DNA of 64,000 nt from Hormiphora californensis (lineage: Eukaryota; Animalia; Ctenophora), in NCBI GenBank assembly GCA_020137815.1, contig CM035362.1:5456001-5520000 (forward strand), in the 5' to 3' direction. The stretch's first letter is position 1. Each line of letters begins with the position of its first letter. A program made the position numbers and the translations under genes. The notes under the pieces were generated by a model, which ran no database searches, was not told where the DNA came from, and saw only the letters and a program-made list of their open reading frames with translations. Of this stretch, positions 18,201 to 21,200 are shown piece after piece.

Positions 18201-21200
18201 TTCGAAGAATATCGCTAATCCGTTCCGCTATCATCCTTATACTTCCTGAATTTTCAGAAACTCTTAAAAACACTGAAAGGCTCTTTCTCTCTATCTCTGT
18301 CTGCCTCACTCTCACTCCCTCGCTCCCTCACTCGCTAGCTCCCTCTATCTCGCTCCCTCTATCTCTCACTCTATCTCTCACTCCCTCTATTTCGCTCCCT
18401 CTATCTCTCGCTCACTCTCCCTCTTTCCTCAGAACATTTAAAAGCAAAAGAATGACACGTAAAGAATGACGGAACCTATCAGTAATTCATCGAAATAATG
18501 AAATACTGATGGCTCCGTCAGATAAATGGATAACAATTTACAAAACAACAAAATATACTTAGCATATGAAATAAAGACTTATTATATAATATATCAGTGT
18601 AAAAAAGAAAAAAAAAGAAAAAAAAAGAAAAAAAAAGAAAAAAAAGATGCACTTACTTTTGAGTTTCTTTTTCAGTTCCTGTGCCATTAGATCACATGTC
18701 ATCTCCTCCTCCTTCATCGCTTGTATTCCAACAAGCGTCATGTCATACGCACCGACCTCGACCTCTGTTATACCGCCTGGCGGGAGGGGATAATTGTGTT
18801 GTTGTGTTAATTAGCTGGGACAATATTACCTAACTGATTGTATGTACTGCATGGTAGCGTAGTATTTGAACTACCGAACCAGCTCACAAAGCCACATGTA
18901 ACGTTGTATAAGTGTATTTACAGTGAAACTATCTTGAAATGTACCCTCAACTTACCTTTCCAAATAGGTAGAATACAATTCTGGTCGCTAAGCCGGCTCT
19001 TGGAGTGAAGGGAAGACAGCTCACTCGTAGTCCATTGCGTTGATTTCTCGATGAATGATTTTGATAGTACCACCAGACCATATTTACTGTCCCTTAGTCC
19101 CTCCTGGGTAATGGGAATGGTTGTCACGTGACCTTATATGGCCATATAAGGCATGATATGTATGACCATATAAGGCATGATATGTATGACCATATAAGGC
19201 ATGGCTCGTTTCATGATATGTATGACCATATAAGGAAAGTTAGGGAACTCTTACATTGATAACACGATGTAATTGACAGCCCCAACTAAGCTCATCCTTT
19301 GCAAAGAACACTTCGATATTCTCCCTCTCGAAGGCCTCCTTCAGCTGTATCACGTAGTTAGTGTCTTCACTGACATAACATATAAACACATCCCACCTCT
19401 TGGGACCTGGAGATATAGTGGGGGTTAGTCCCAGTCTCTCTCTTTAACCCTTAGGGCATAATATCCACATTTTATAAGGGCCCTTTTAATGTGTCGACCC
19501 TTACGGCGTGGGGCCAAATTAAACATGTCTCCAATATAAAGGTCGCCATAACAAACCCTCACTCTTCCACCTTTGACTCCCTCAGGTCCAAAACACTCCG
19601 CTGGTAGCGTTTTACAGCATGTTTTGGAGCTCAGACATGGTATTACAATAATCACTCACTAGCGGTGCTGGTGCCTGGTACTAGGAACCGACCGAACCAA
19701 GTAAGCAACCAATGAGAGCTCTTTATTTAGGCCACCTGACTGGTTATCAGCCAATCAGGGACCAGTACTTCCTGATTCGGTCGGTTCCTGCCTGGTACCA
19801 CTAAGTGATTGCAGCCCTCGTATAGTAGGGGTCCCAACACTCAGGGGTTCACGCATGTATAGCAATAGCTTAGCGCCATAGTTACCCATACCCGGGCGGT
19901 ATGTGGTTTGCTCAGCGTGTGGCTAAGTGACCCAAAAAAATGTATAGCAATCGCTCTTATAAAATCAAATCAATATCAGTAAAATCTTACCCTTATTGTG
20001 TAGACAATGCTGACAGGGTGAGAAAGCATCGGGTCTGATCAACTTCTTGATTTCTTCATAAGGTGTTTCTTTGTAACTCTTGAACCTGTGAGTATTGACG
20101 TGTGTTGTCAATGGTTACCACGTGACAACAACTCCATATTCGGGCATTACATCACGTGACTAACAACTCCATATTCGGGCATTACATCACGTGACTGACA
20201 ACTCCATATTAGGGTACTTACCGGAAGAAATAGAAGAAGCCACAGAGTAGGACTACCACAATTGCTAGGATACACAGAATGGGGACTAGAATACCAACAA
20301 CATTGATTCCCATTTTCAGGCTCGGATCTAAACGGGAAAACAAGGTGTTAGAAAATGGGGTCTACTACATCACAGTGTTAGAAAATAGGGTATAGAGCTA
20401 CTTCAGGGGTTCTACAGGGGAAAGTAGTCGCGGTGATAGGTCCTAGTGTCCTACTATAATAGCTCGTGAGACAGACAAGGTTTCTGCTCCCTTTCTGCTG
20501 GTTACGACAAACAAAATATATCAACAGTAGTCATGTTCTAACCCTTATCTGGCTAAGACAGCTCAGAAGAAGAACCCTGACTAACCAGCAGGAACCGACC
20601 GGACCAAGTAAACAACCAATCAGAACTCGTTATTTAGGTCACGTGACTGGTTATCAGCCAATCAGGGACACGTATTTCCTGATTCGGTCGGTTCCTGCAA
20701 ACCAGACTAACCAGACTGACAGCTATATGGTTTAACAAGGCAACTAAACGAAAGTTCGATTGATCGGGGGCAGCTTTTCTGCGTCAAAAATACAACAGAG
20801 ATCAGCTCTATTAAAGATTGGTATGGAAGTGACAGTATGAGATATAGTTTAAACTTCCCGTAAATGGGCATTTGACTGGAAGGGAGAGAAATAGGGGGAT
20901 AGAGAGTTGGGGCTGGGAGGGAGATAGAGAGAGGATAGGGGGATAGAGAGATAGGGATAGAGAGGTGGGGCTGGGAGGGAGATAGAGAGAGAGAGAGAGA
21001 GAGGATAGAGAGAGTGTGTGTGTGTGAGAGAGAAAGAGAGATTATAATGTGGAAGGTCGACAGAGAAATTAAAATTGGTCGGTATAACTGCCGAAAGAGA
21101 AGAATAGTGGGGGATGGTGACAAATGGAAATGTAATATATCTCAATAGTCGACCATCGTGTGGAAGTCACATGAAGATCGTGTGAACGAAAACATGAGGC

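Follow-up and report, generated by a model that had tools for sequence, protein, structure and literature searches.

The 64-kb window of the ctenophore Hormiphora californensis analysed here (the whole stretch of DNA) carries on its minus strand the gene of a single-pass receptor with a cytoplasmic TIR domain. The whole gene was read on this strand, and its exon chain was tested for splice ends and an open frame. The receptor features a signal peptide, a Cys-rich cap, FN3 repeats, one transmembrane helix, a juxtamembrane segment of 33 residues, the TIR domain, and a tail (Table 1). From 34588 to 18657, 16 exons join into an open frame of 568 codons with GT-AG at every end, and six upstream exons (51636 to 49966) hold 194 codons with a hydrophobic leader at the start. 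N-glycosylation sequons occur 15 times before the transmembrane helix and not once after it. The TIR domain is split over three exons, which have AG acceptors and GT donors, are free of stops when joined, and place a GAG codon for Glu within W-T-T-S-E-L. An earlier note on this DNA (the original prediction) had quoted the TIR motifs and this Glu codon, and in-frame splicing of the three exons bears out both.

The TIR domain belongs to the bacterial AbTir/TcpB/TcpC family, an affinity that is solid. Searched alone, exon 1 matches Pfam TIR_2 at E 4.5e-5 and exon 2 at E 0.0096, both under the curated cut-off, whereas full-length orthologues pass it (~41 bits versus a cut-off of 28). Exon 2 alone finds seven sequences in the PDB at E≤10, all of them bacterial TIRs with AbTir the best (E 2.6e-6); the matches of exon 1 alone are weak and ambiguous (BtTir 0.12, MyD88 0.2). 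When the ctenophore orthologue P0002 serves as query, the top seven PDB sequences comprise two of AbTir, one of BtTir, three of TcpB/BtpA, and one of PdTIR (E from 6e-16 to 1e-10), followed among TIRs by TRR-2 of Hydra (0.16) and one of a plant (1); no TLR, MyD88, or SARM1 appears at E≤10. Even with a mixed profile, SARM1 reaches only E 0.03–0.3. On a profile built from 100 AbTir-like TIRs, the joined domain reaches 121 bits, a score that is favourably biased because this exon had helped to gather the profile set. A second profile, of 54 other TIRs, gives 63.9 bits, and the top shuffle reaches 20.3 bits (500 shuffles, 430 reported). PADLOC assigns the candidate defence family PDC-S66 (E 7e-35), NCBIfam gives retron-TIR and Thoeris matches far below cut-off, and the ESM Atlas returns just generic TIR clusters with bacterial or unrecorded taxa. 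The single-sequence fold was poor (predicted local distance difference test, pLDDT, 44), and an alignment-based AlphaFold model (pLDDT 78) was used instead. Its best match is 7uxu, the subunit of the active AbTir:3AD filament (Z 19.6, root-mean-square deviation 1.4, 133 residues aligned; next Z 17.4), with Foldseek in agreement, a match biased towards this outcome because bacterial-type rows make up 17 of the 20 in the underlying alignment.

The gene is shared by ctenophores. A search of 1.84 billion representatives with exon 2 gave 27 matches, the top two being 82% and 76% identical, and the orthologues are XP_063692699 of Bolinopsis microptera and ACHWQZ_G019122 of Mnemiopsis leidyi. Compared with four orthologues, the ectodomain is 20–26% identical, the juxtamembrane segment 79–82%, and the TIR 76–79%: the cytoplasmic part is under strong constraint and the ectodomain evolves fast. 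Of the 25 exonic differences listed from other runs, beyond which lie 216 further rows, 24 are synonymous third-position changes and one sits at an exon edge. A receptor paralogue also exists, its TIR just 56% identical. Word-based homologue searches found ctenophore proteins only (6 of 301 and 2 of 96 candidates), and a search of longer proteins added one plant NLR among 7994 scored, which is weak evidence of absence elsewhere. That the locus is a contaminant, a pseudogene, or a chance motif is scarcely credible. One upstream exon does carry a stop in the window, but this stretch is mis-assembled, the 16-exon chain is open with near-pure synonymous divergence, and the orthologues lie on ctenophore contigs of 11–16 Mb. 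Contamination and chance origin are already refuted. The original prediction, which had argued against contamination, is upheld: introns interrupt the TIR, the GC content at third codon positions is 51.1 in both TIR and ectodomain, and the orthologues lie on annotated ctenophore chromosomes.

Table 1. Features of the receptor gene in the window
Feature	Position	Strand	Evidence
First coding exon (ATG, signal-peptide-like hydrophobic start)	51599..51636	-	GT donor, frame continues through the next five exons; aligns with orthologue N-termini
Cys-rich N-terminal cap, three exons (51400-51498, 51098-51237, 50790-50886)	50790..51498	-	GT-AG, open
Start of first FN3-like repeat, two exons (50368-50494, 49966-50046)	49966..50494	-	GT-AG, open; alignment
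FN3 exon, approximate boundaries, mis-assembled stretch (apparent stop and frameshifts)	36700..36841	-	Short-read contigs, same sample
Two FN3 exons, tentative boundaries	34637..34978	-	Orthologue tblastn matches 34902-35003, E 1e-5; frames
FN3 stalk, eleven exons (34532-34588, 32812-32934, 32600-32685, 32414-32479, 32113-32234, 29025-29161, 27212-27298, 26062-26194, 25659-25732, 22385-22486, 21640-21736)	21640..34588	-	GT-AG, no stops
Transmembrane exon	20222..20327	-	Kyte-Doolittle 19-mer mean 3.4
Juxtamembrane exon, PYEEI motif and CxxC	19991..20085	-	79-82% identity to 4 orthologues; motifs in 10/10 listed ctenophore proteins
TIR exon 1 (betaA to alphaB, BB loop)	19255..19406	-	Pfam TIR_2; splice phases
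TIR exon 2 (betaC, alphaC with W-x3-E, betaD ILPIW)	18956..19103	-	Every PDB match a bacterial TIR
Trp codon equivalent to AbTir W204	19032..19034	-	TIR alignment
Glu codon equivalent to AbTir E208	19020..19022	-	Invariant in 7/7 ctenophore and 100/100 AbTir-like rows
TIR exon 3 (alphaD to alphaE)	18657..18776	-	Splice chain
Terminal exon A: CWGC, ends TTLL-stop	17182..17309	-	Matches tails of P0002, P0034, P0036
Alternative exon B, CWGC start	15565..15696	-	GT-AG, in phase

The Cys pattern of the cap can be aligned to the Bolinopsis and Mnemiopsis orthologues at 20–25% identity, and the cap matches no Pfam family. It may loosely resemble the N-termini of anosmin or ROS1; the likeness was set aside, and the PDB match to ROS1 ran through FN3 positions 192–415 and not through the cap. 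Pfam fn3 is matched by one stalk exon and by the orthologues—a search of five orthologue proteins at E≤1 found fn3 and no LRR, Ig, or SEFIR family—and the PDB matches of the ectodomain are FN3 repeats of the RPTP/contactin/DSCAM type. The apparent stop in one FN3 exon is most likely an assembly fault, since same-sample short-read contigs disagree strongly with the window there (369 letters versus 265 and 105 versus 54 in the window). From ~35100 to 43200, the window is a low-quality assembly: it has GC-rich garble, a T run (~700), an A run (~950), and a lengthy tandem array with a 26-nt unit, and one exon falls in sequence rich in deletions. At the end of TIR exon 2 (18956–18990), run X5 shows a very high summed depth, which may stem from a repeat or from many similar copies. 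A possibly-RNA run holds just short ~85%-like pieces with no visible splice joint and speaks neither for nor against expression.

The origin of the domain was examined in a tree of 77 rows and 142 columns, thinned by identity and score from ~160 rows to 5 ctenophore, 46 AbTir-like, and 26 other TIRs; it holds no TLR, MyD88, or SARM1, only one plant row, and P-labelled rows from metagenomes without taxonomy. The ctenophore clade (100/100) lies inside the AbTir-like group (100/97), and the Hormiphora TIR branches outside the Bolinopsis and Mnemiopsis orthologues. The published classification agrees: in Supplementary Table 1 of PMC13142454, the Mnemiopsis orthologue carries the label Clade_2, as do TcpB, AbTir, and TcpC, and TLR/MyD88 form clade 1, plants clade 4, and SARM1 clade 8. 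The bacterial likeness claimed in the original prediction is thus borne out by sequence and profile matches, tree, published clade table, and fold, and the TIR phylogeny that it had proposed groups the domain with the AbTir-like set, the contrast to TLR, MyD88, and SARM1 coming from the published table. Horizontal acquisition, which it had offered beside an ancient origin, fared less well. The ctenophores are nested among bacterial-type rows in all 200 bootstrap trees and none of these holds the bacterial-type rows together (the bootstrap is not fully settled), but a sister placement with the 46 bacterial-type rows held together is not rejected by the approximately unbiased (AU) test (p=0.168). 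Ctenophores probably gained the TIR domain from bacteria before their own diversification; horizontal transfer is likely, though not statistically shown. A different origin, which leaves function untouched, is less likely: the domain would represent an ancient lineage of eukaryotes that is the sister of the bacterial clade, with ctenophores and a homoscleromorph sponge retaining what all others have lost. The AU result and the long ctenophore stem (1.5) are consistent with such a lineage, as are two TIR-NTPase-TPR proteins of the sponge Oscarella and four scattered eukaryote rows that Supplementary Table 1 of PMC13142454 also places in Clade_2. Bacteria account for 26 of the 36 Clade_2 rows of that table (two duplicated); the others are 1 row from an archaeon, 3 from Mnemiopsis, 2 from Oscarella, and 4 from eukaryotes scattered elsewhere, and the table's five Pleurobrachia rows all fall outside Clade_2. 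The prokaryotic share (27 of 36, counting the two duplicates) and the bootstrap trees argue against ancient descent, as does the scope of the survey, which covers nearly 1000 eukaryotes with all metazoan TIRs kept and has ctenophores and sponge as the sole Clade_2 animals.

The residues with which AbTir contacts its ligand are retained. The AbTir contacts S143, L177, K202, W204, E208, and W227 (bioRxiv 10.1101/2022.05.07.491051) are all kept in the window by alignment, along with G174 and T205, K202 being accompanied by a two-residue insertion; the paralogue keeps the pocket except for a His at S143. Both W-x3-E in αC and the βD motif ILPxW with its conserved Trp are present, and the claim of the original prediction that the TIR keeps the NADase Glu holds in every ctenophore row (7/7). 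Since W204 is required for cyclisation in AbTir (bioRxiv 10.1101/2022.05.07.491051), the kept Trp points to a cyclic product. W-x3-E is also kept in the paralogue but lost in two Mnemiopsis clade-mates, and is therefore dispensable for the fold.

Other observations weigh against catalysis. Twelve of the 37 positions conserved at ≥90% in AbTir-like TIRs are changed in the window, concentrated in βB, the BB loop, and αB: the VWYD bulge after βB reads VFFA in 7 of 7 ctenophore rows, the BB-loop GDSL has become GCQL (G-C-(Q/E/S)-L across ctenophore rows), and the AB-loop Gly is replaced by N, K, or D. VWYD and GDSL are group-35 signatures (PMC7075850). In AbTir, the mutants S176A, R178A, and Y207A have little or no activity left and that of D182A is lowered (bioRxiv 10.1101/2022.05.07.491051), and S140A, R151A, and D167A are inhibited (PMC11374754). 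The ctenophore rows have Gln/Glu at 176 (Ser in the paralogue), His/Asn at 178, Ser/Thr/Asp at 207—a position that varies among bacteria too—Cys at 140, Ile/Phe/Thr at 151, and Ala at 167 (AbTir numbering). Nor does the Glu decide the matter: it is a weak predictor of catalysis because, of 61 animal TIRs that bear it, only 12 showed activity in Escherichia coli, TLR2, IL-1R9, and IL-1R10 keeping it yet being inactive (bioRxiv 10.64898/2026.04.20.719644), and its invariance alone says little, since the ctenophore rows agree at 71 of the 139 positions in the TIR. In the same study, TLR4 and two invertebrate TLR TIRs made cyclic ADP-ribose (cADPR) and TLR2 did not. Clade membership leaves the product unfixed as well, the products of AbTir and TcpC being different (PMC13142454). 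On the sequence, catalysis is plausible, and the chances of measurable NADase activity of the receptor TIR are about even.

The reading put first here, on which the balance of judgement is level, is that of a ctenophore single-pass receptor with an AbTir/TcpB/TcpC-family TIR as a likely clustering-activated enzyme that cleaves nicotinamide adenine dinucleotide (NAD+), the predicted product being a cADPR isomer. A ligand would bind the Cys-rich/FN3 ectodomain and cluster the receptors, upon which the TIRs could stack head to tail in the two-stranded parallel assembly seen for active AbTir. Composite sites would pair Glu and Trp of one subunit with the ILPIW Trp of the next; NAD+ would be cleaved in them, with the Trp of W-x3-E favouring cyclisation and 2'cADPR as the best guess. 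The TIR is probably held in place beneath the membrane by a zinc clamp made up of the CxxC pair. Clade-mates that lack the Glu, namely a TIR-Death protein and a myristoyl-type TIR, may also be drawn into the same MAL/MyD88-type assembly. An FN3-TIR2 gene of Mnemiopsis rises on re-exposure to Vibrio (PMC11797021); this 'gene 3' may be the orthologue or the paralogue.

Function as a scaffold only is the less likely but serious alternative. Useful catalysis would have been lost, and the TIR would nucleate an assembly with a TIR-Death adaptor of the same clade and a TIR anchored in the membrane; this set would have arisen separately as a counterpart of TLR/TRAM-MAL/MyD88. The substitutions just described cluster on assembly surfaces, in keeping with this role. 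An MGxxxS start is presumably a myristoylation consensus. Judged by eye, the Mnemiopsis members of Clade_2 in Supplementary Table 1 of PMC13142454 include EP00115_P007084, a TIR+Death protein of 656 aa with W-x3-D, hence Asp at the Glu position, and P014252, a 236-aa TIR with an MGxxxS start and neither the Trp nor the Glu. A Death-TIR2 protein of Mnemiopsis has been noted as MyD88-like (PMC11797021), and the active AbTir filament has itself the MAL/MyD88 arrangement (bioRxiv 10.1101/2022.05.07.491051). Receptor, TIR-Death protein, and myristoyl-type TIR together suggest, by analogy, a TLR/TRAM/MyD88 trio built from another TIR lineage. Against a pure scaffold stand the pocket residues, kept in both receptor paralogues apart from the His noted above; the candidate adaptors are known from the Mnemiopsis table alone. 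Enzyme and scaffold are not exclusive because the active AbTir filament is of MAL/MyD88 type. The original prediction, in which NAD+ cleavage could take place instead of MyD88 scaffolding, posed a false dichotomy here, the more so with a Glu-less TIR-Death protein in the same clade. A combined and bolder version is on present judgement rather unlikely: ctenophores, without TLRs and MyD88, would have independently built an immune pathway of receptor and adaptors, starting from a bacterial defence TIR gained by horizontal transfer. In this pathway, a catalytic FN3 receptor would produce 2'cADPR at the membrane and nucleate clade-mates devoid of catalysis, one of them a myristoylated TIR for sorting and the other an adaptor of the TIR-Death type. 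If true, the pathway would stand as a living intermediate that links the enzyme filaments of bacterial TIRs to the scaffold of MyD88 type.

The segments flanking the TIR carry motifs of their own. All ten listed ctenophore proteins have PYEEI/V and CQHC before the TIR and CxxC right after it. Tails A and B, which both start with CWGC, are conserved across ctenophores and in the paralogue; both tail types are annotated in one Mnemiopsis gene (P0034 versus P0038), and the paralogue has two tails too, the second of which has lost the first Cys and gained a CxxC three residues on. The flanking CxxC pairs and the shifted CxxC of the paralogue tail suggest a putative zinc clamp across the TIR termini, in which CQHC would pair with the tail CxxC. 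The sequence pYEEI is the optimum of Src-family SH2 domains, and the TTLL end of tail A is presumably a class I PDZ-type motif. Signalling could run mainly via tyrosine phosphorylation, with YEEI docking Src-family SH2 domains, and via PDZ scaffolds on tail A, in adhesion, neural, or developmental roles, the TIR being a dimerisation or weak NAD-draining module. The PYEEI/V of all ten listed proteins, the RPTP-, contactin-, and DSCAM-like repeats, and the TTLL end kept in three proteins fit this proposal. It is nonetheless improbable: PYEEI lies inside a predicted helix (residues 77–84) and may be structural, the ectodomain appears to diverge faster than in typical adhesion receptors, and one FN3-TIR2 gene responds to Vibrio (PMC11797021).

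The window also holds further reading frames and repeats. Two tandem intronless paralogous open reading frames of ~537 aa lie on the minus strand at 2390–4000 and 4938–6554, each with an N-terminal BTB/POZ domain and an unannotated remainder. A retrotransposon of the long interspersed nuclear element (LINE) type, with endonuclease, reverse transcriptase, and ORF1 (Pfam), occupies 8684–11928 of the minus strand, and a second reverse-transcriptase-like stretch of LINE type was seen by eye on the plus strand at ~52900–54900. A dispersed ~105-bp element resembling miniature inverted-repeat transposable elements, with inverted ends and very high depth in DNA runs, recurs at ~14240–14350, 19685–19790, 20590–20700, and 21530–21625. 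Two long intronic inverted repeats (fold-back elements) were seen by eye at ~27320–29000 and ~30730–32070.

The architecture and the clade label have each been published, though not together, and catalytic activity is by now reported for animal receptor TIRs. PMC11797021 (2025) published the FN3-TIR2 architecture, counts 15 TIR2 genes and no canonical TLR in Mnemiopsis, and repeats the view of TIR2 as bacteria-derived; its accessible portion does not mention NADase or catalysis. In the available text of PMC13142454 and its later version, ctenophores are absent, and the clade label stands uncommented in the supplement. The main text of bioRxiv 10.64898/2026.04.20.719644 names no ctenophore, nor does the accessible part of bioRxiv 10.64898/2026.10.06.757174, which describes the AbTir family as defence-associated and without antiphage activity in E. 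coli. Literature searches on ctenophore or Mnemiopsis TIR domains and NADase, which left subscription journals largely uncovered, gave no paper that puts this receptor forward as an enzyme of the AbTir type. New are the shared clade with the Glu-less Mnemiopsis TIR-Death and myristoyl-type TIR proteins, the CxxC pairs flanking the TIR, and the conserved YEEI motif. A surface receptor wired to a bacterial-type TIR is a concrete and cheaply testable mechanism, and an animal with both catalytic and non-catalytic members of a single clade would allow for direct study of the transition from TIR enzyme to scaffold.

Among known systems, the closest are the bacterial TIRs AbTir, BtTir, TcpB (BtpA), PdTIR, and TcpC, which share 24–40% identity (median 33%), W-x3-E, ILPxW, GLxxSxYG, and the best fold match with the receptor TIR. 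This AbTir family corresponds to group 35 of Toshchakov and Neuwald (PMC7075850) and to Clade 2 of PMC13142454. The bacterial proteins are coiled-coil, DUF1883, or retron fusions, whereas the ctenophore domain is eukaryotic, contains introns, sits on a type I receptor with altered VWYD and GDSL motifs, and has a predicted activity. The Mnemiopsis FN3-TIR2 gene and its Bolinopsis orthologue feature the same architecture with a TIR 78–79% identical and nothing essential different. Toll-like and IL-1 receptors are likewise type I single-pass proteins with a cytoplasmic TIR, some of them catalytic, but combine an LRR or Ig ectodomain with a Clade 1 TIR instead of Cys-rich and FN3 domains with a Clade 2 TIR. 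IL-17 receptors, with the architecture FN3–transmembrane–SEFIR, resemble the receptor in having an FN3 ectodomain above a STIR-clan domain; here, TIR_2 with W-x3-E takes the place of SEFIR, which was not matched. SARM1 and Dictyostelium TirC share the proposed domestication of a bacterial TIR enzyme, but are cytosolic, belong to clades 8 and 6, and have other architectures, the ARM-SAM-SAM-TIR order of SARM1 being absent here. The ctenophore receptor would be a further eukaryotic domestication of a bacterial TIR after these two and, in the literature searched, the first on an animal cell-surface receptor of this clade.

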